The notes under the pieces were generated by a model. The model saw nothing but the letters and a program-made list of their open reading frames with translations. It had not been told where the DNA came from and did no database searches. From an uncultured Planctomycetaceae bacterium (GTDB lineage: Bacteria > Planctomycetota > Planctomycetia > Pirellulales > PALSA-1355), in NCBI GenBank assembly GCA_963785305.1, contig CAWAUV010000004.1, positions 483,022 to 547,021 of the forward strand: 64,000 bases of DNA, in the 5' to 3' direction. Positions 5,577-16,000 of the stretch are shown here, one piece after another; position 1 is the stretch's first letter; every line of letters begins with the position of its first letter. Position numbers and translations under genes: made by a program.

Positions 5577-6248
5577 TTAGTCCGATTGGCGGCGATGCAC
5601 AACCGCGAAGCTCAATTGTTCGAGCTCCATCGCCAGATCGACCCCCACCTGGCTCACGCCGGGCGGCAGGTTGAGCGTCACCGGCGCGAAGTTCAATATC
5701 CCATTCACGCCGGCGGCCACCAGGGTGTCGGCCACCTGCTGGGCCACGCCGGCCGGCGCCGCGATGAGGCCCAACTTGATGCCTTGCTCCCGAACCGCCT
5801 CCGCCAGCGCGTCGAGCGAGCGAATCTCCACGCCATGCACGATGGCCCCGATCTTTTCGGGGTCGTTGTCGAAAGCCGCCACGATCCGGTAACCCTGTCG
5901 GCCAAACCCGCGGTAGCCCAACAGGGCTTGGCCCAGGTTGCCTGCGCCGACGATCGCCACCGGCCAGTCGCGATCGGCCCCCAGGATTGCACGGATCGCG
6001 AGGATCAGGTCATCGCAGCGGTAGCCCACGCCCGGATGCCCGAAATGTCCGAAATAGGCGAGGTCCTTGCGAACTTGGGAATCGTTGAGCCCTAGAAACC
6101 CGCCAAGTTGACCAGAATTGGTGGTCTCCGTGCCCTCGCGGACCAGCCGCTGGAGCTCGCGCAAGTAGAGGCTCAGCCGGCTCACGACCGCTTTCGGCGG
6201 AACGGCTTCCGTTTGACCGTTGGCCGGCTTTGGTTTTGGCGCTGTCAT
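5577..6248 (-). CDS. rex: Redox-sensing transcriptional repressor Rex
   Basis: RLSLYLR...SQVRKDLAYFGHFGHPGVGY wHTH, Rossmann IVGAGNLGQAL, GILNFAP. Confidence 0.95.
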   Translation of the reverse strand: MTAPKPKPANGQTEAVPPKAVVSRLSLYLRELQRLVREGTETTNSGQLGGFLGLNDSQVRKDLAYFGHFGHPGVGYRCDDLILAIRAILGADRDWPVAIVGAGNLGQALLGYRGFGRQGYRIVAAFDNDPEKIGAIVHGVEIRSLDALAEAVREQGIKLGLIAAPAGVAQQVADTLVAAGVNGILNFAPVTLNLPPGVSQVGVDLAMELEQLSFAVVHRRQSD

Positions 6249-6759
6249 GAGGGGTCGGTAGGTGTCGAAATTGGGCGCCGCGGAATCGAAGGGCGTTTCG
6301 TCCCACTCTAAGGCATGCCCCGCCGGCCGGGCAAGGGCCGAAATTCCGCGAAAGCCAGCCTCGCTCGGCATGCGCGCCTTCCATCGCGGGGCGATCGATC
6401 GGCACAACCCGCAGGATCGGCGCCGTGTGTCTCGCGGAACCGAATCGCGACTATAGGACCCAACGGAATCCCAGGACTTGTTGGTGAAAAGCCACCTAGT
6501 TCTCCCGCCGCTTGTATTCCGATCAATTCTTTCATTTCAGCCGAATTACCCATTTGTTCGATGGAATCATGGATGAAACAGAAAACACAAGACGCCTGCG
6601 AAGCATGCGTGGCATGTAGTGGATCGCGTTAATGCGATACATGGGATGTCTGGCTAATGTGCGTAGTCCAGACAACCGAATAACCGTAAAGGCGAGTTCG
6701 CGCTCGCTCGACTGACCGGATTCCCCAATTCAGAAGCCGTTGACGAAGGAGGCAAGACC

Positions 6760-9093
6760 ATGAGTAATCGTTGGGCAGTGCCGCTGCTCGCCCTAGTGCT
6801 CGCAGCCATGTCGGTCGACATGGCCAGCGCTCGCTATTGTGGCGTGGCCCGGTACCGCTGCTGCGCCACTTGTTGCGACACGCCGGCATACGCCTGCTGC
6901 AAGCAACAGTGCTACACCGTGATGAAGACGTGTCAGGAGACCGTCTACGAGAAGCAGAACTATACCTGCTACAAGACGTGCTACGAGAAAGTCTGCGAGC
7001 CCAAGACGATCGACTGCTTGAGCTACGTCAAAGAGACCTGCTATCGCAACTGCGAATACACCGTCTGCAAGCCGGTGTATGAGACCAAGACTCGCGATAT
7101 CTGCTACACCGTCTGCAAGCCGGTGTATGAGACCAAGACTCGCGATATCTGCTATACCGTGTGCAAACCGGTCTACGAAACCAAGACCCGGGATATTTGC
7201 TACACGGTCTGCAAGCCGGTCTACGAGACGCACAACCGGGACATCTGCTACACGGTCTGCAAGCCGGTGTGGGAGACCAAGACTCGGGACATTTGCTACA
7301 CGGTGTGCAAGCCGGTCTATGAGACCAAGACGCGTCAAATCTGCTACACGGTGTGCAAGCCGGTGTGGGAGACCAAGACGCGCGATATTTGCTACACGGT
7401 CTGCAAGCCGGTCTACGAGACGCACAACCGGGACATCTGCTACACGGTCTGCAAGCCGGTGTGGGAGACCAAGACTCGGGACATTTGCTACACGGTGTGC
7501 AAGCCGGTCTACGAGACCAAGACCCGCGAAATCTGCTACACGGTGTGCAAGCCGGTGTGGGAGACCAAGACTCGCGACATTTGCTACACGGTGTGCAAGC
7601 CGGTCTATGAGACCAAGACTCGGGATATCTGCTACACGGTCTGCAAGCCGGTGTACGAGACCAAGACCCGGGATATTTGCTACACGGTGTGCAAGCCGGT
7701 CTACGAGACCAAGACTCGCCAAATCTGCTACACGGTGTGCAAGCCGGTGTATGAGACCAAGACGCGAGACATCTGCTACACGACCTGCAAGCAAGTCCAA
7801 GAGACCTGCGAGCGCGAAGTGTGCTACGAGGTCTGCAAGCCGGTTCACTACACCAAGACGGTCCAGGTGTGCTGCGGACATTGGGAAACCCAAGTCTCGG
7901 AATGCCCGGGCCCGACCGTTTGCAAGTGCGTTCAAGAACCCGGCTGCTGGAGCTGGGATCCCTGCTGCTGCCGTTGCGTGTACAAGCCCGGCTGCTGCCA
8001 CACGGTGCAGGTCCAATGCCCGCCGATCAAGGTGTGCAAGAAGGTCTGGGTCCCGACCGTGCAAGAGAAGACCATCAACTGCGTGAAGTATGTGCGGGAA
8101 TCCTGCGTCAAGAAGGTTCCCTACACGGTGTGCCGCACGGTGTCGGAAAACCATGTCAAGACCTGCTCGTATCAGGTCTGCCGCATGGTGCCCGAACAAC
8201 ACGTGAAGCAGTGCAACTACACGGTGTGCCACATGGTCGCCGAGCAGCACGTGAAACAGTGCTGCTATAAGGTGTGCCACATGGTCTCCGAGCAACACGT
8301 GAAGCATTGCAACTACACGGTGTGCCACATAGTCGCCGAGCAGCACGTGAAACAGTGCTGCTACAAGGTGTGCCACATGGTCTCCGAGCAACACGTGAAG
8401 CAGTGCAACTACACGGTGTGCCACATGGTGCCCGAGCAACACGTGAAGCATTGCAGCTACACGGTGTGCCACATGGTGCCCGAGCAACACGTGAAGCATT
8501 GCAGCTACACGGTGTGCCACATGGTGCCCGAGCAGCACGTGAAGCAGTGCTGCTACAAGGTGTGCCACATGGTCGCCGAGCAACACGTGAAGCAGTGCAA
8601 CTACACGGTGTGCCACATGGTCGCCGAGCAGCATGTGAAGCAGTGCTGCTACAAGGTGTGCCACATGGTCGCCGAGCAACACGTGAAGCATTGCACCTAC
8701 ACCACCTGCCGCATGGTGCCCGAGCAACACGTGAAGCATTGCAACTACACGGTGTGCCACATGGTCGCCGAGCAGCACGTGAAGCAGTGCTGCTACAAGG
8801 TGTGCCACATGGTCTCCGAGCAACACGTGAAGCAGTGCAGCTACCAGGTGTGCCACATGGTCGCCGAGAAGTGCTCGAAGCAAGTGCCCTACACGGTCTG
8901 CAAGCCGGTGCACACGACCAAGACCATCATGGTCGAACGTTGCGTGCCCAAGCAGGTTGCCTACACGGTGACCCGCTGCGTGCCGAAAGTGGTCTGCAAG
9001 CAAGTTCCGGTGCAGGTCTGCTGCCCGGCCCCGGCTTGTGAACCCTCGTGTGCGGCGCCGGCCGCGGCGCCAAGCTGCGGTTGCGGTGGCTAA
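6760..9093 (+). CDS. Secreted Cys-rich YTV-repeat protein (planctomycete YTV family), 777 aa
   Basis: RBS AAGGAGG, signal peptide, two arrays of 16-aa repeats with a YTV core (ICYTVCKPVYETKTRD; CNYTVCHMVAEQHVKQ), strongly biased codon usage. Confidence 0.9.
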   Translation: MSNRWAVPLLALVLAAMSVDMASARYCGVARYRCCATCCDTPAYACCKQQCYTVMKTCQETVYEKQNYTCYKTCYEKVCEPKTIDCLSYVKETCYRNCEYTVCKPVYETKTRDICYTVCKPVYETKTRDICYTVCKPVYETKTRDICYTVCKPVYETHNRDICYTVCKPVWETKTRDICYTVCKPVYETKTRQICYTVCKPVWETKTRDICYTVCKPVYETHNRDICYTVCKPVWETKTRDICYTVCKPVYETKTREICYTVCKPVWETKTRDICYTVCKPVYETKTRDICYTVCKPVYETKTRDICYTVCKPVYETKTRQICYTVCKPVYETKTRDICYTTCKQVQETCEREVCYEVCKPVHYTKTVQVCCGHWETQVSECPGPTVCKCVQEPGCWSWDPCCCRCVYKPGCCHTVQVQCPPIKVCKKVWVPTVQEKTINCVKYVRESCVKKVPYTVCRTVSENHVKTCSYQVCRMVPEQHVKQCNYTVCHMVAEQHVKQCCYKVCHMVSEQHVKHCNYTVCHIVAEQHVKQCCYKVCHMVSEQHVKQCNYTVCHMVPEQHVKHCSYTVCHMVPEQHVKHCSYTVCHMVPEQHVKQCCYKVCHMVAEQHVKQCNYTVCHMVAEQHVKQCCYKVCHMVAEQHVKHCTYTTCRMVPEQHVKHCNYTVCHMVAEQHVKQCCYKVCHMVSEQHVKQCSYQVCHMVAEKCSKQVPYTVCKPVHTTKTIMVERCVPKQVAYTVTRCVPKVVCKQVPVQVCCPAPACEPSCAAPAAAPSCGCGG
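7051..7866 (+). repeat. Coding tandem repeat, 17 x 48 bp (N-arm of YTV protein)
   Basis: 15 near-identical plus 2 degenerate units of ICYTVCKPV(Y/W)ET(KT/HN)R(D/Q/E). Confidence 0.95.
8116..8931 (+). repeat. Coding tandem repeat, 17 x 48 bp (C-arm of YTV protein)
   Basis: 17 units from VPYTVCRTVSENHVKT to VPYTVCKPVHTTKTIM; consensus C(N/C/S)Y(T/K)VCHMV(A/P/S)EQHVK(Q/H). Confidence 0.95.
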
Positions 9094-9152
9094 GCTCGAT
9101 ATCCGCTAGGTCTTTCTTCTGTCGCCTCGGAAGAAGGTCCGGTCAGTTCGGG

Positions 9153-9192
9153 GGCGGCCCGATCCTTGCAAAAGGGTCGGGCCGCCTTTTTT
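9153..9192 (+). terminator. Rho-independent terminator of the YTV gene
   Basis: GGCGGCCCGATCCTT-GCAA-AAGGGTCGGGCCGCC followed by TTTTTT. Confidence 0.85.
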
Positions 9193-9396
9193 CATGCGCC
9201 CGGCGGCAATCGTTCGCCCGCGCCGATCGCATACCCAACCATGCCGATCGTTCGGGCGCGATTCGCCCGCCGCGATCCCTTTCCGCGGAAAATGGACGCT
9301 CGCGGTCTGAAGCGCCCCGCGCGACATTCCGATACACATGCAAGCGTCGCCACGTCGCGAGGCAAGCGCGATGCAGCGCGGCGCTTACAAAAAGCG

Positions 9397-9870
9397 ATGA
9401 ATACCTTCAATCGCCCTCGGCCCTTCGCGGGAGGCTTGCTCGCCATGTTTCACCGAATGTTCCTCCAGGGTTGGATTCCCCTTGCCGCCGCGCTCTGCGC
9501 CTTGGCCTGTGCCGCGAGCTTCGCCACTCCGGCCGGCGCCCACGATCTCACGGGCCGCTGGGATGGAACCTGGTCGAGCCAAGTGACGCCGCACCATGGC
9601 CCGCTGCACGGCAAATTTCGCCGCGTCGACGCCGGCCACTATCGCGTGGTGTTCACGGGGCGCTTCTTCCGCGTCGTGCCGTTCCGCTATGCGGTGAACT
9701 TGAACATCGTGTGCGAGGGGCCGGGCGTGGTGCAATTGGCGGGCAGCTCCAAGTTGCTGGGCTTCGGCGAGTTTCGCTATCAGGCCACGGTCCAAGGCGA
9801 TTCGTTCGTGGCCAACTATCAAGCCAAACGCGACCACGGGCAATTCGTGCTCACGCGCCGCTGCCGCTAA
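9397..9870 (+). CDS. Small secreted beta-rich hypothetical protein
   Basis: Ala-rich signal peptide, then DLTGRWDGTWSS...HHGPLHGKF...YRVVFTGRF...DHGQFVLTR. Start codon uncertain (9397 or 9445). Confidence 0.65.
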   Translation: MNTFNRPRPFAGGLLAMFHRMFLQGWIPLAAALCALACAASFATPAGAHDLTGRWDGTWSSQVTPHHGPLHGKFRRVDAGHYRVVFTGRFFRVVPFRYAVNLNIVCEGPGVVQLAGSSKLLGFGEFRYQATVQGDSFVANYQAKRDHGQFVLTRRCR

Positions 9871-10056: not shown

Positions 10057-13000
10057 ATGGCTGCTGCCGACATTGTCATCAAAGGCGCCCGCGAACACAA
10101 TCTGCGGGAAGTCGATCTTTCTCTACCGCGCAATCGATTAATCTGCCTGACCGGCGTGAGCGGTTCGGGCAAGAGCTCCCTGGCGTTCGACACGCTCTAC
10201 GCCGAAGGTCAGCGGCGCTATGTCGAAAGCCTGTCTAGTTTTGCGCCAGTTTCTCGGCCAGATGCCGAAGCCCGATGTGGATTTCATTGGCGGCCTGAGC
10301 CCTTCGATCTCGATTTCGCAGAAATCTTCGGGCCAAAACCCGCGCTCGACCGTCGGCACGATCACCGAAATCCACGACTACTTGCGAGTGCTCTACGCCC
10401 GCGCCGGTTTGGGCCATTGCCCCCGCTGCCAGCGCGAGATCACGGCCCAGACGCGCGAGCAAATTATCGACCGGATCGGCGAACTGCCCGCCGGCGCCCG
10501 CTATTCGATGCTCGCTCCGCTGGTGAAGGCTCAAAAGGGTGAATACCGCGATCTGTTCGAAGACTTGCTCAAGCAGGGATTCGTGCGGGCTCGCGTCGAT
10601 GGCGAGATTTACTTGCTCACCGACAACGTGATGCTCGATCGCCAAATGCGGCACACGATCGAAGTCGTGATCGATCGGCTCGTGGCGGGCGAAGGACGCG
10701 CTCGACTCGCCGAAGCGGTCGATCTCGCGCTCCGGCTCGGCGGCGGAAGTTTGATCGTGGCCCCCGAGGCGGGGCGCCCCTCCGAGAGCGCCGGGCCGGT
10801 TGAAGAAGTCGGTGGCGAGGCTGCCGCGGACGGGGGCGTTGCCGAACCCGAATTGGCTCGCGAGAAAACCGGCGTCCGCAAGAAGCGCTCGGCTCGCGGC
10901 GGAAAGGTCCCGGGCGATCTCCAACTCTCGGCCCACTATGCCTGCACCCATTGCGGCCTGAGTTTCGAGCCGCCCACGCCGCAGCTCTTCAGCTTCAACA
11001 GCCCGCAAGGCATGTGCGGCGCGTGTTCCGGCCTGGGGCATCAATACACGTTCGTTCCCGAGCGGCTCACGCCCGACCCGAGCCTGTCGTTCAAACAAGG
11101 CTGCATCGAGCTGATCGGCCCTTGGAAGGAACTGGGGCGTTGGAAGCGGCATATCTTCAGCGGCGTGGCCCATGCCGTCGAACGCAAACACGAGCTGCCC
11201 GAAGGCACGATGCTCGAAACGCCCTGGCAAGAGCTATCGCCCGAATTGCAAAACCTCTGGCTCCACGGCACGGGCGATCTGCACATCACCTTCACCTGGC
11301 GCTCCGGCGGCCATGGTCAAAAATATGGCGGCCACTTCGAGGGCATCATTCCGCAGTTGCTCTCGCGACATCGGAACTCGCAAAGCAAAATGCAGATTCG
11401 ACAACTCGAAAAGCACATGAGCGTGCTCGATTGTCCGGAATGCCACGGCGGCCGGCTCAATCCGCAAGCCGCGGCCGTGCGGCTTACGACCCGGCATCCC
11501 CAGTTCGCCGAACAGCCCGCGCGCTCGCTGCCCGAGGTTTGCCATCTGCCGATCGCCGACGCCACTCGCTTTTTCGAATCGCTCGCCCTCGAGGGCGCTC
11601 GAGCCCGCGTGGCCGACGAGATATTGAAAGAGATTCGCGGTCGGCTCGGCTTTCTCTCGAATGTGGGCCTCGATTATCTCACGCTCGACCGCACCGCGCC
11701 CACGCTTTCGGGCGGCGAGTCGCAGCGCATCCGACTGGCCGGGCAAATCGGCTGCGGGCTCGTGGGCGTGCTTTATATTCTCGACGAACCCTCGATCGGC
11801 CTCCATCCGCGCGACAACGACCGCTTGCTCGACACGCTCACGGCCCTGCGCGATCTGGGCAATACCGTGGTGGTGGTCGAGCACGACGAAGACACGATGC
11901 GGGCGGCCGACCACATCATCGACTTTGGCCCCGGCCCGGGAGTGCGCGGTGGATATGTCGTGGCGTCGGGCGGCGTGGCCGAGTTGTCCGCGGCGCCGAA
12001 GAGCGTCACCGGCAAATTTCTCTCCGGCGAAATGGCGATCGAAGAGCCCGCCGCGACTCGTCCGCGCACCGGCAAGTCGCTCAAGATCGTCAATGCCAGG
12101 CACAACAATCTGACCGGTGTCGATGTCGAGATTCCTTTGGGCGCCCTGGTATGCGTTACCGGAGTGTCGGGTTCGGGCAAGAGCTCGCTGGTCAATGATA
12201 TCTTGGCCGACACATTGCACCGCGACCTCAATGGCGGCGAATCGGAGCCGGGGGAACACGACCGGATCGAGGGGGTCGAGCATCTCGACAAGATGATCGC
12301 CATCGATCAATCGCCCATCGGCCGCACGCCGCGATCGAACCCCTCGACCTATATCAAGCTGTTCGACGAAATTCGCGATCTCTACACCCAGCTTCCCGAA
12401 TCGAAAGCCCGCGGCTACAAGGCCGGCCGCTTTAGTTTCAATGTCCCCGGCGGTCGTTGCGAAGCCTGCGAGGGCAATGGGTCGAACAAGCTCGACATGG
12501 ACTTCCTGGCCGATGTGTGGGTCACTTGCCCGGTGTGCGAGGGGCGACGATTCAACCGCGAAACCCTGCAAGTGCGTTTCAAGGGCAAGAGCATTTCCGA
12601 AGTGCTCGAAATGGATGTGCAAGAGGCCGTCGCTCATTTCGAGAATGTGCCCAAGATTCGCCACAAATTGCAGACCTTGCACGATGTCGGGCTCGACTAT
12701 CTGAAGCTCGGCCAACCTTCGCCCACGCTCTCGGGCGGCGAAGCCCAGCGGGTGAAACTGGCCCGGGAACTGGTCAAGCGCAGCACCGGCCGCACTCTGT
12801 ATCTGCTCGATGAACCGACGACCGGCCTGCACTTCGCCGATATCAAGCTGCTGCTCAAGGTGTTGCACGGCTTTGTCGACGCCGGCAACACGGTGCTGGT
12901 GGTCGAGCATAATCTCGATGTGATCAAGACCGCCGACTGGCTGATCGACATGGGGCCCGAGGGCGGTCGCGGCGGCGGACGGATCATCGCCTGCGGCCCT

Positions 13001-16000
13001 CCGCGGGCGGTGGCCGCGGTCGAAGCTTCCTACACCGGCCGCGCCTTGGCCGCGGTGTTCGATCCCGCGCTGCGTCCGGCGCCACGCGAATCGGGCCGGG
13101 CCGCGCCGGTGTCGCATCGCGCGATTCGCGTTCGCGGCGCTCGACAGCACAATTTGAAAGATATCGACGTCGAGATTCCCCGCGACCAAATGACCGTTTG
13201 CTGCGGCATGAGCGGTTCGGGCAAGAGCTCGCTGGCCATGGACACGATCTACGCCGAAGGCCAGCGCCGTTATGTCGAAAGTCTTAGTTCCTATGCGCGG
13301 CAGTTCGTCGGTCAAATGCAGAAGCCGGCCCTCGATCATATCGAGGGGCTCTCGCCGGCGATCGCCATCGAGCAAAAACATCTCGGCCACACGCCGCGCT
13401 CGACCGTGGGCACCGTGACCGAGATATACGACTACATTCGCATTCTCATGGCCCGGCTCGGAGAGCCCTATTGCCCCGACTGCGACCTGCCGATCGGGAC
13501 TCAAACCGCCGACGAGATCACGGACAAGATTCTCGCCGAACCGCCGGGCACGAAGCTGTTTATCATGGCCCCCATGGAAGTGGCCGTGGGCGAGCAGTAT
13601 GAAACGCTCTGGGACGATATGCGGTCTCGCGGTTTCGTGCGTGCCCGGGTCGATGGCCAAACCCACGCGCTCGACGCGATGCCCGCGATCGATCGCCGCC
13701 GCAAGCATGCGGTCGAAGTGGTGATCGATCGGATCGCGGTCCGGCCCGACGCTCGCGCTCGGCTCGCCGACACAGTCGAGCAAGCGCTCTCGCTCGGCAA
13801 GGGCGTGTTGCATGTGGCTTATGCCCATGATGAACAGCCGGAGCCGAAGTGGCGGGTCGAGATTCACAGCCAGCATTTTGCCTGCGACCGCTGCGGGCGG
13901 AGTTTCGACCGGCTCACGCCGCATAGCTTTTCGTTCAATAGCTCGCTGGGCTGGTGTCCCTCGTGCGAAGGTCTTGGCACGCAAACCGGCGCCGATCCGG
14001 CCGCCCTATTGCGCGACCCCAAGCTCACGCTGGCCGAAGGCGCCGTGGCGATTTGGCCGATGGCCGGCAATCCGCTTTTCGAGCGGATATTGAAAGCGCT
14101 TTCCACCCATACCGGGGTTCCGATCGACACGCCGTTCGATCAGCTCAGCGCCCGGCAGCGGCGCGTGCTGTTTTATGGCCTGGGCGATGAATGGATCGAT
14201 GTTTCGGCGCCGGGCAAGCGCGCCAAGACCGATCGGCCGCTGTTTCGCTTTCAGTTCAAGGGCTTCTATCCGGCGGTCGAGGAAGCGGCCCGGCTTTCGC
14301 CCGCCCTGCGAGCGCGCTGGGATAGCCTGGTGGGCGAAGTCGAATGTTCGACCTGCGGCGGTAGCCGCCTGCGCGACGACGCCGGCGCGGTGCGTTTGCG
14401 TGGGCAGACGGTCGATGGCTTGTGCCGCATGCCGCTCGGGCAGCTCACCGCCTGGTTCGCGGACTGGAACCTCGACAAGCGCGAGCAAAAAATCGCCGGC
14501 GAATTGGTGCGCGAAGTCCGCAATCGCTTGAATTTCCTGCTCGAAGTGGGCCTCGAATATCTTTCGCTCGGCCGGCCGGCGCCCACGCTCTCGGGCGGCG
14601 AAGCCCAGCGGATTCGGCTGGCCAGTCAGGTGGGCAGCGGCCTGTGCGGGGTGTTGTATGTGCTCGACGAACCGACGATTGGCCTGCACCCGCGCGACAA
14701 TCGCCGCTTGATCGGCGCGCTCGAGAAGCTTCGCGATCTCGGCAACACGCTCCTCGTGGTCGAACACGACCGCGAGGTGCTCGCCGCCGCCGACATGCTG
14801 CTCGACTTTGGCCCGGCCGCCGGCGATGGCGGGGGACGGATCGTGGCTCGCGGCGCACCGGCGCAGGTGGCCAAGCAAAAAGACTCGATCACGGGCCCCT
14901 TCCTTTCGGGCAAGAAGGCGATCGCCGTGCCGACGAATCGGCGCTGCGCCGGCCCGACGCCGATGGGGACGACGCCCGCGCGGACAAAACTCCGTCGAGC
15001 AAAGGCGCGACGCGAAAGCCGAGCTCGAAGACCGCGAAGTCCGGCGGCAAACAGGTCGCGCTGCCCGCTCCCGCGGCGGCCAAGCGTGGCGTTCGCCCGG
15101 GCGATGATCTCGAAGCGCCCGGCGGTTGGCTCGAAGTGGTCGGCGCTCGGCATCACAATCTTCGCAATGTCACGGCCCGCTTCCCGCTCGGCTGCTTCAC
15201 CGTGGTCTGCGGGGTGAGCGGTAGCGGCAAGAGCTCGTTGGTCGAGGATGTGATGTGCAATGCTTTGGCGAAGGCCTTGCACCGCGCCAGCGCCGCCCCC
15301 GGCGCCCACGACGCGATTCGCGGGCTCGAACTCATCAACAAAGTGATTCGCGTCGATCAGCAGCCGCTCGGCAACACGCCGACGTCGAACCCCGCCACCT
15401 ACACGGGCGTGTTCGACCTGATTCGCAATCTGTTTGCCCAACTGCCCGAGTCGCGGCTCCGCGGCTACACGGCCCGGCGGTTTAGTTTCAATGTGCCCGG
15501 CGGGCGCTGCGAGGCCTGCGAGGGCAATGGGCAATTGCGGATCGAAATGCACTTCCTGCCCGATGTGTGGGTCGAGTGCGAAACGTGCGGCGGCAAGCGC
15601 TACAATCCCGAAACGCTCGCGGTGCGATACCATGGCCAGAGCATTGCCGATGTGCTGGCGATGTCGTGCGCCAAGGCCGCCAAGCTGTTCGAAAACATTC
15701 CCCAGGTGCGGCGCATCTTGCAGACGCTCTGCGATGTGGGGCTCGACTATGTGCGGCTTGGCCAGCCGGCCCCCACGCTCTCGGGCGGCGAGGCCCAGCG
15801 GGTGAAGTTGGCCGCCGAACTGGCCCGGCCCGACACCGGTCGCACTCTGTATCTGCTCGACGAACCGACCACGGGCCTGCATTTCGAGGACATCGCCAAG
15901 CTGCTCGATGTGCTCAATCGGCTGGTCGACCTGGGCAATAGCGTGGTGGTGATCGAACATAATCTCGATGTGATCAAGACGGCCGACTGGATTATCGAAA

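Follow-up and report, generated by a model that had tools for sequence, protein, structure and literature searches.

The stretch of DNA analysed here (the window) comprises 64,000 nt of contig CAWAUV010000004.1, GenBank assembly GCA_963785305.1, from an uncultured Planctomycetaceae bacterium, and carries a gene of the YTV family at positions 6760–9093 of its forward strand. The product of this gene, called the 17+17 protein below, has two different arrays of 17 repeat units each, one on either side of a small centre. It is probably a secreted envelope protein that folds at a central cap into one antiparallel two-stranded beta-ribbon, with two arrays that co-vary. Pairing and co-variation of the arms are shown by computation: arm lengths agree across relatives, unit orders mirror each other about the centre, covariation peaks on one antiparallel diagonal, and two AlphaFold2 models give matching strand patterns. 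The 17+17 protein itself seems an ordinary member of a known family, and what is new seems to be a structural rule that holds family-wide.

Relatives were collected by a protein search over 5.8 billion proteins (153 relatives, of which the best 120 were used), by a HMMER scan of 1.84 billion representatives (1,147 at E ≤ 0.001) and by scanning 185,579 species genomes for a pattern (508 relatives confirmed, of which the best 80 were kept). A hidden Markov model (HMM) of the centre, built from amino acids (aa) 354–452, converges on a domain of ∼92 columns. It matches the 17+17 protein once and at full length (aa 356–447) and is found in 115 of 121 proteins, with exactly one full-length copy in 95. 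In the family plan a signal peptide precedes a KPVYET-type array; the centre domain comes next, and then an MVPE-type array with a tail. In the 17+17 protein, one ∼92-aa centre is flanked by equal YTV arrays, of 308 and 311 residues by HMM coverage and 334 and 334 by DSSP. HMMs of head and tail drifted to generic models of the YTV repeat and were used only as such; counts by a single-unit HMM, reliable only for the 17+17 protein and its close relatives, were replaced by HMM coverage and by the spacing of Y anchors.

Arm length, taken as the span of YTV-repeat HMM matches on either side of the centre, changes in both arms together. The metagenome set comprises 248 sequences, 130 of them with one full centre and 101 apparently complete; the two arms differ by at most 8 residues in 76 of these 101. 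Concordant proteins fall into classes of 6/6, 7/7, 8/8 (47 proteins), 9/9, 11/11, 13/13 and 19/19 units, and in the metagenome and genome sets concordant arms span about 90 to 548 residues. The 17+17 form is unusually long compared with the commonest class, 8+8. On a tree of the centre domain, both arms undergo repeated joint changes, and independent contrasts correlate with r 0.51 over all 101 proteins and 0.69–0.70 after curation (permutation p about 1e-4). The 80 genome loci yield 77 open reading frames (ORFs) with one full centre, 63 of which are closed at both ends. In the latter the arms agree within 8 residues in 38 cases and within 4 in 30, whereas shuffling the C arms among the 63 ORFs gives a mean of 6.7 agreements and a maximum of 16 in 10,000 shuffles. 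Concordant genome ORFs cover 27 distinct N values from 244 to 548 (N/C examples: 244/244, 258/258, 308/309, 324/325, 336/337, 356/357, 372/373, 388/389, 420/421, 486/487 and 548/549). These counts agree with the sequence-only reading of the window, a preliminary interpretation of the letters that expected the arms to expand together, with N equal to C across homologues of varying length.

Agreement also depends on assembly type. It is found in 19 of 22 ORFs from assemblies with contig_N or chromosome-style record names, taken as long-read assemblies, as opposed to 19 of 41 in k141/NODE/scaffold-style ones (Fisher p 0.003). The three discordant long-read-style ORFs show out-of-frame text or are split, and the surplus of discordant loci in the k141/NODE/scaffold-style assemblies could stem from collapsed tandem repeats. 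In six relatives from contig_N-style metagenome-assembled genomes (MAGs), namely L084 (the closest relative, 83% identity), L052, L068, L056, L060 and L089, the arrays are broken into two or three frames, probably by long-read indel errors; L084 has 17 N and 17 C anchors once its frames are read separately.

The spacing of successive Y anchors of the YTV motif was read outward from the centre, and orthologues that mix 16- and 14-residue units display the same 14/16 series outward in both arms. Five of them discriminate mirror from parallel order:

L095: 32 of 33 anchors match in mirror order and 26 in parallel order; 0 of 500 shuffles reach the mirror score.
L093: 28 of 29 in mirror order, 22 in parallel order; 0 of 500 shuffles.
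L032: 16 of 17 in mirror order, 10 in parallel order; 1 of 500 shuffles.
L059: 17 of 18 in mirror order, 11 in parallel order; 0 of 500 shuffles.
L061: 16 of 16 in mirror order, 12 in parallel order; 0 of 500 shuffles.

In L031, L050, L053 and L055 the patterns are themselves periodic, so that mirror and parallel order cannot be told apart. Both arms have equal counts of short units in 18 of 19 concordant mixed-unit proteins. Where the 14/16 spacings are clean (13 proteins), every one of the 83 paired 2-residue deletions has a single, constant offset. At the DNA level, a 186-bp higher-order repeat (16+16+16+14 aa) occurs in both arms of L095 (3345–6495; 7.4 and 6.9 copies per arm) and of L093 (3295–6128; 6.3 and 6.2 copies). 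These near-equal copy numbers indicate that matched four-unit blocks were amplified in both arrays. DNA duplication cannot produce such a reversal of order within one coding strand, in arrays of unlike sequence, and the mirror order therefore points to selection on antiparallel pairing at the level of residues.

Structure prediction leads to the same geometry. AlphaFold2 was run on P0053, a homologue of 461 aa, with an alignment of 54 rows; the mean predicted local distance difference test score (pLDDT) is 71, rising to ∼80 for the arms and ∼89 for the centre. The model contains continuous strands at 26–100 and 103–166 facing 229–292 and 295–370, and both the ends and the breaks of these strands sum to 395–396. 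Two strands of ∼140 residues can hydrogen-bond only to each other. Covariation, computed as mutual information with average product correction over the 43 gap-free rows of the P0053 alignment, is highest between the arms at i+j = 395 (z 5.9), then at 393 and 397, while the best parallel diagonal reaches z 2.1. This signal is true covariation and not repeat homology. A search of the P0053 model against the PDB with Foldseek returns nothing at E ≤ 0.001.

The model of the 17+17 protein, made with a 61-row alignment, is confident at 49–100, 330–480 and 710–750. Residues 49–96 lie opposite 709–756 and residues 315–382 opposite 423–490, and 49+756, 315+490 and 382+423 all give 805. A single register at both ends implies that both strands are 334 residues long, and pairing in the middles of the arms is presumed from their equal lengths together with the mirror evidence of the relatives. 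The parts of the gene that correspond to the putative ribbon, all on the forward strand, are:

6760..9093, forward strand: the entire YTV-family gene (ORF; Pfam PF07639).
6904..7905, forward strand: N strand, aa 49–382, with the head (49–97), 17 units (98–369) and 13 residues of the centre domain; DSSP strands at 49–96, 99–116 and 315–382, pLDDT 74–89 at the ends, pairing of the middle presumed.
7051..7866, forward strand: N-arm tandem array of 17 × 48 bp with a 192-bp higher-order repeat, from Tandem Repeats Finder (TRF) and the 16-aa layout.
7906..8025, forward strand: predicted hairpin cap or turn, aa 383–422, a Cys/Trp/Pro-rich knot with four short strands, model pLDDT 86–89; core of the ∼92-aa centre domain (aa 356–447).
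8026..9027, forward strand: C strand, aa 423–756, with a linker, 17 units (453–724) and the tail; DSSP strands at 423–490, 497–514 and 709–756.
8116..8931, forward strand: C-arm tandem array of 17 × 48 bp, from TRF and the 16-aa layout.

The antiparallel, in-register pairing proposed in the sequence-only reading is thus recovered from the strand breaks of P0053 and from the ends of the 17+17 model, and the single long anti-diagonal that it predicted appears in the covariation and in the AlphaFold2 strand pattern. Its idea of one long ribbon stands as well; its estimate of about 90 nm does not, since 334 residues per strand, each adding 0.33 nm, give about 110 nm. The strands are longer than was assumed because head and tail pair too. 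Covariation pooled per unit has a broad maximum at 801–809 that does not fix the register to the residue, and across unit shifts it is highest at shift 0, modestly (1.06 versus 0.42–0.86).

The most likely course of events is the following. The signal peptide would be removed from the secreted YTV protein of this Pirellulales-like planctomycete, and the chain would fold back at the small Cys/Trp/Pro-rich cap, so that residues 49–382 run antiparallel to 423–756 in a two-stranded beta-ribbon of ∼334 residues per strand, of the order of 110 nm if straight, and presumably a free rod. N-arm unit k would stand opposite C-arm unit 17−k, and the unique head opposite the unique tail. Cysteines lying mostly on one face could then join neighbouring molecules into the wall resistant to sodium dodecyl sulfate (SDS) that has been reported for planctomycetes. 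As each residue would need a partner, the two arrays could change length only together, and such forced co-change, comparable to the compensatory changes of an RNA stem, would account for expansions and 2-residue deletions that are matched between the arms.

Several observations weigh against this reading. AlphaFold2 and the covariation scan share one alignment and are not independent, and the pairing is deduced from DSSP strings and their sums, not from coordinates or a contact map. In the 17+17 model, aa 117–314 and 515–708 are not modelled as a ribbon (pLDDT about 25–30; mean of the whole model 49), and strands 99–116 and 497–514 are probably paired out of register; in the Cys-rich clade the register is uncertain by 2–3 residues. 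A free two-stranded ribbon of such length has no solved precedent, the best VIA-align score of the P0053 model being Z 2.6 among 48,161 chains. Finally, the arms disagree in 25 of the 101 metagenome proteins and in 25 of the 63 genome ORFs, and most of this discordance is ascribed by eye to frameshift, truncation, HMM gaps, modules or possible repeat collapse. Among the 25 metagenome proteins, eight are out of frame or cut short, nine have a head or tail that is present and not covered by the HMM, three carry inserted C-arm modules of ∼30–50 aa and five are in-frame asymmetries. The unexplained in-frame cases comprise P0002 (182/66), P0005 (125/157), P0041 and P0077 (short by two C units), P0107 (short by two N units) and, in the genome set, L028, L036, L041, L074, L075 and L082.

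The pairing could also be intermolecular, in which case the N arm of one chain would associate with the C arm of a second, in a swapped dimer or an open-ended head-to-tail polymer, and the ribbon would be the joint of a network. Equal arms, mirror unit order and anti-diagonal covariation fit such an arrangement equally well, and it would yield a continuous wall fabric, in keeping with the walls that withstand boiling SDS according to the relevant passages of PMC5287468. Nevertheless, this alternative appears improbable. Both models pair right from the cap (382/423 in the 17+17 protein, 166/229 in P0053), and the cap is compact and confident. Pairing from the cap onward makes closure in one chain the simplest reading, even if a monomer prediction cannot really separate the two. 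The arms would accordingly be partners within one chain.

Still less likely is a hairpin zipped by regular disulfides between the N arm and the C arm, the form in which the ribbon was originally imagined. A unit pair has 4–5 Cys, and by arithmetic a register of 808 would place C115+16k opposite C693−16k. The register at both ends of the model is 805, however, and there the Cys of the N arm face Val and Pro/Ala/Ser, whereas those of the C arm face Tyr/Trp and Lys/Arg; over registers 803–807 the sole opposition of two Cys is that of C51 with C754, outside the repeats. Paired deletions sum to about 802–805 and give no support to 808, where pooled covariation is 0.63, against 1.06–1.88 at 803–807. 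Many relatives have Cys-poor arms, and Cys-poor P0053 gives the same ribbon in AlphaFold2. Collectively, the 805 register, the deletion sums, the low covariation at 808 and the Cys-poor ribbons leave the inter-arm zipper without support, and the repeat cysteines would thus not bridge the two arms of the single-chain ribbon. Strand parity would put three or four Cys of each unit pair on one face, with a 4-residue spacing. This suggests that a one-face Cys ladder may link neighbouring molecules rather than both arms. W-type N units and CCYK-type C units coincide in 3/4 cases, versus 2 among the rest (by hand), which is too few to count.

Separate repeat domains for the two arms (solenoids or meanders), with an equal count due to chance or to an assembly artefact, are hardly credible: tandem arrays do usually fold unit upon neighbour, and 22 of 41 closed ORFs in short-read assemblies have unequal arms, but equality recurs over about 90–548 residues, far beyond shuffles, unit lengths follow a mirror order, covariation is anti-diagonal (z 5.9 versus 2.1 for the parallel diagonal), and the strands are continuous over 60–75 residues instead of forming short rungs.

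The gene itself encodes 777 aa followed by a stop codon, with 112 Cys (14.4%), in a frame that is open throughout. A Pfam scan assigns the product to PF07639 at 606.9 bits (E 3e-187, 18 stretches), far above the gathering cut-off of 21, so that the YTV membership named from the sequence alone is secure. The same protein has no match in an NCBIfam scan, and a PDB sequence search gives one chance LysM row only (E 0.12). Sub-threshold Pfam rows, among them Fibrinogen_BP (32 bits versus a cut-off of 50), were dismissed as repeat noise.

The N arm (aa 98–369) consists of 15 near-identical 16-aa units of the ICYTVCKPV[YW]ETKTRD type plus a degenerate pair (338 and 354). In turn, the C arm (aa 453–724) consists of 15 units of the C.Y.VC[HR]MV.EQHVK. 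type (469–708) with a degenerate unit at each end (453 and 709). A unit HMM at 4 bits counts 17 units in each arm, and TRF reports 15.3 and 14.5 DNA copies of 48 bp with 84–86% match. The claim of 17 units per arm with the same 16-aa period is borne out by layout and unit HMM, though it depends on the choice of boundaries. A search of sequencing runs found no run with >0.06 of the words, and the 17/17 count is given as assembled. DNA units of the N and C arms share at best 36/48 identical positions (mean 24/48), which implies that neither arm is a DNA copy of the other and agrees with the earlier remark that they differ in sequence. The 83-aa Cys/Trp/Pro centre (aa 370–452), which contains PGCWSWDPCCCRCVYKPG, and the related linkers IDCLSYVKETC (aa 84–94) and INCVKYVRESC (aa 439–449) are present as claimed. 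The 192-bp higher-order repeat is confined to the N arm (TRF), and the longest exact DNA repeat inside the gene is 128 bp. This repeat (7192–7319 and 7384–7511) marks a recent 192-bp duplication of four N-arm units, units 4–5 being equal to units 8–9. The mirror positions in the C arm (units 13–12 versus 9–8) are just 40–44/48 alike, and both arms were therefore not expanded in a single event.

The remaining features of the gene are as follows:

6748..6752, forward strand: ribosome-binding site GGAGG, 7 nt 5′ of the ATG, read directly.
6760..6831, forward strand: putative signal peptide, aa 1–24, with a hydrophobic start and model helix 6–17; cleavage after ASA presumed.
9028..9090, forward strand: C-terminal Cys/Pro/Ala tail, aa 757–777, unstructured in the model.
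9150..9192, forward strand: intrinsic terminator, an 18-pair hairpin followed by a U run (−37.9 kcal/mol, z −5.4; none of 200 shuffles reaches this stability).

The signal peptide, strong ribosome-binding site and own terminator noticed at the outset are all recognizable here. The N-terminus is hydrophobic, with helix 6–17 in the AlphaFold2 model, and can be read as a signal peptide ending ASA|RY. The terminator hairpin (9150–9192) is not called by a simple terminator scan and was found by its folding energy relative to shuffles. The YTV gene stands alone, with a divergent Rex-type repressor gene upstream and an ORF and then a uvrA-like gene downstream. The Rex-type redox-sensing repressor gene (PF06971 and PF02629) lies at 5577–6407 on the reverse strand. 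Just past the terminator, an ORF of 234 aa (9166–9870, forward strand) has no Pfam match. The uvrA-like gene (10057–15217, forward strand) is apparently frameshifted near 10220–10250: ORF 10057..10542 is a canonical UvrA N-terminus with a Walker A motif, and ORF 10220..15217 carries on in another frame. The latter, of 1665 aa, has two sets of UvrA_inter and UvrA_DNA-bind domains, indicative of a tandem double UvrA, and the split is due either to a pseudogene or to an assembly indel error.

Relatives occur in records of Pirellulales, Planctomycetaceae, Thermoguttaceae and Gemmataceae. The best 80 of the 508 genome relatives lie in records titled Pirellulales, Planctomycetaceae, Thermoguttaceae, Planctomycetota and similar, as expected of a family of Planctomycetia, except for four. 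These four (L062, L067, L090 and L069) are orthologues in MAGs labelled Candidatus Kuenenia (three) or Burkholderiales (one); as the literature, in the parts covered, confines YTV proteins to Planctomycetia, they probably result from binning contamination. The genome of the window has three more YTV genes, at C9:194230–194478 (reverse strand), C7:445601–445876 (reverse strand) and C4:10731–10841 (forward strand) (L008, L016 and L019). One of these paralogues belongs to the Cys-poor 8+8-unit class, with arms of 132/133; another has a mini-centre and arms of about 86/85, and a third a ∼100-aa Pro/Cys/Gly-rich centre and arms of about 167/166, both read by eye. All three are symmetric though their centres differ, strongly so in two of them.

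Additions to the family plan are found at the C-terminal side. A P/A-rich extension is frequent after the tail, at times with a TPR-like domain. In P0004, P0006, P0008, P0009, P0012, P0017 and P0076, a Pro/Ala-rich C-terminal linker is followed by such a domain (PF14559/PF13432, from precomputed lists); it is absent from the 17+17 protein and, in the hairpin model, would adjoin the N-terminus. Five Gemmataceae-type proteins (P0045, P0082, P0090, P0088 and P0120) have one or two modules of ∼30–50 aa inserted in the C arm only, with the motif R-G-x-Y-V-D-x-K-G ... G-R-x-F-x-E-G-A. Once the modules are subtracted, P0045 and P0082 have arms of about the same length, and P0090 still has unequal ones (146 versus 172). 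Such modules may loop out of the ribbon.

In the literature, as far as the passages covered extend, YTV proteins are among the main components of Gemmata obscuriglobus walls boiled in SDS (PMC5287468), score highest in wall preparations of Tuwongella immobilis and are confined to Planctomycetales (PMC8567305), are cited for Rhodopirellula baltica (PMC3343278, PMC12673574) and include one gene among the essential genes of Planctopirus limnophila (PMC10632474). PF07639 appears in a table of modelled repeat units in which no similar structure is named (PMC8078820). A full-text literature search found no two-arm, mirror-symmetric or hairpin description of a YTV protein in the text it reached, and an earlier remark is possible. 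By analogy with the wall proteins of these species, the 17+17 protein may be a cross-linked envelope rod. The sequence-only reading likewise saw in it a possible envelope fibre or molecular ruler.

The structural make-up of the planctomycete protein wall has been open since the 1980s, and YTV proteins are its best candidates. It can be suggested, tentatively and with chances a little short of even, that they form a new fibrous class: a one-chain ribbon tens to nearly 200 nm long, with mirror arrays under selection, which would build a load-bearing Planctomycetia wall linked by Cys ladders and would have its length tuned by matched copy number. The model predicts that each arm residue adds ∼0.33 nm to the rod, so that the 8+8 paralogue would measure about 47 nm, the 17+17 protein about 110 nm and the longest orthologue about 190 nm. 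It also predicts that the two termini share one end of the rod, that given residues are neighbours across the strands and that function is lost when a single arm is shortened. If true, this would add, as far as we know, a new rule to repeat-protein evolution, two co-expanding arrays with compensatory indels, and would offer a template for protein nanorods of programmable length.

Comparison with known systems places the proposal in perspective. Known YTV proteins have been described, in the texts covered, by motif, Cys content and location only, and the 17+17 protein is likewise Cys-rich with a readable signal peptide. Hairpins in solved structures offer partial likenesses. The arms of IHF/HU proteins and the stems of beta-pore toxins appear in weak VIA rows (pA104R, Z 2.6; iota toxin pore, Z 2.3; IHF, Z 2.0), and weak Foldseek rows at E ≥ 0.04 name the phi29 knob, epsilon toxin and aerolysin pores, all with long antiparallel hairpins. 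Solved hairpins are, however, far shorter than the 140–570 residues per strand predicted for YTV proteins, are part of a barrel in the pores and give no significant match. In the chlamydiae, the Cys-rich proteins OmcA and OmcB stiffen the envelope through disulfide links, and a functional analogy within the Planctomycetes–Verrucomicrobia–Chlamydiae (PVC) group is possible; the four Pfam rows at E ≤ 1 include no family of this kind, and the architectures are not known to be related. A further parallel is with periscope proteins (SasG/Aap), variable-length rods of near-identical tandem repeats. Similarly, YTV DNA repeats are 84–91% alike, show recent block duplications and vary in copy number among relatives, and a thin, extended shape that lacks a hydrophobic core is predicted; RpfB is one of the four weak structural rows (Z 2.1). 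Periscope rods nevertheless run from N to C, pushing a distal domain outward, with one array that is free to change. In the predicted YTV ribbon, by contrast, the chain would return to its start, the termini would lie at the same end and two arrays would have to change together.

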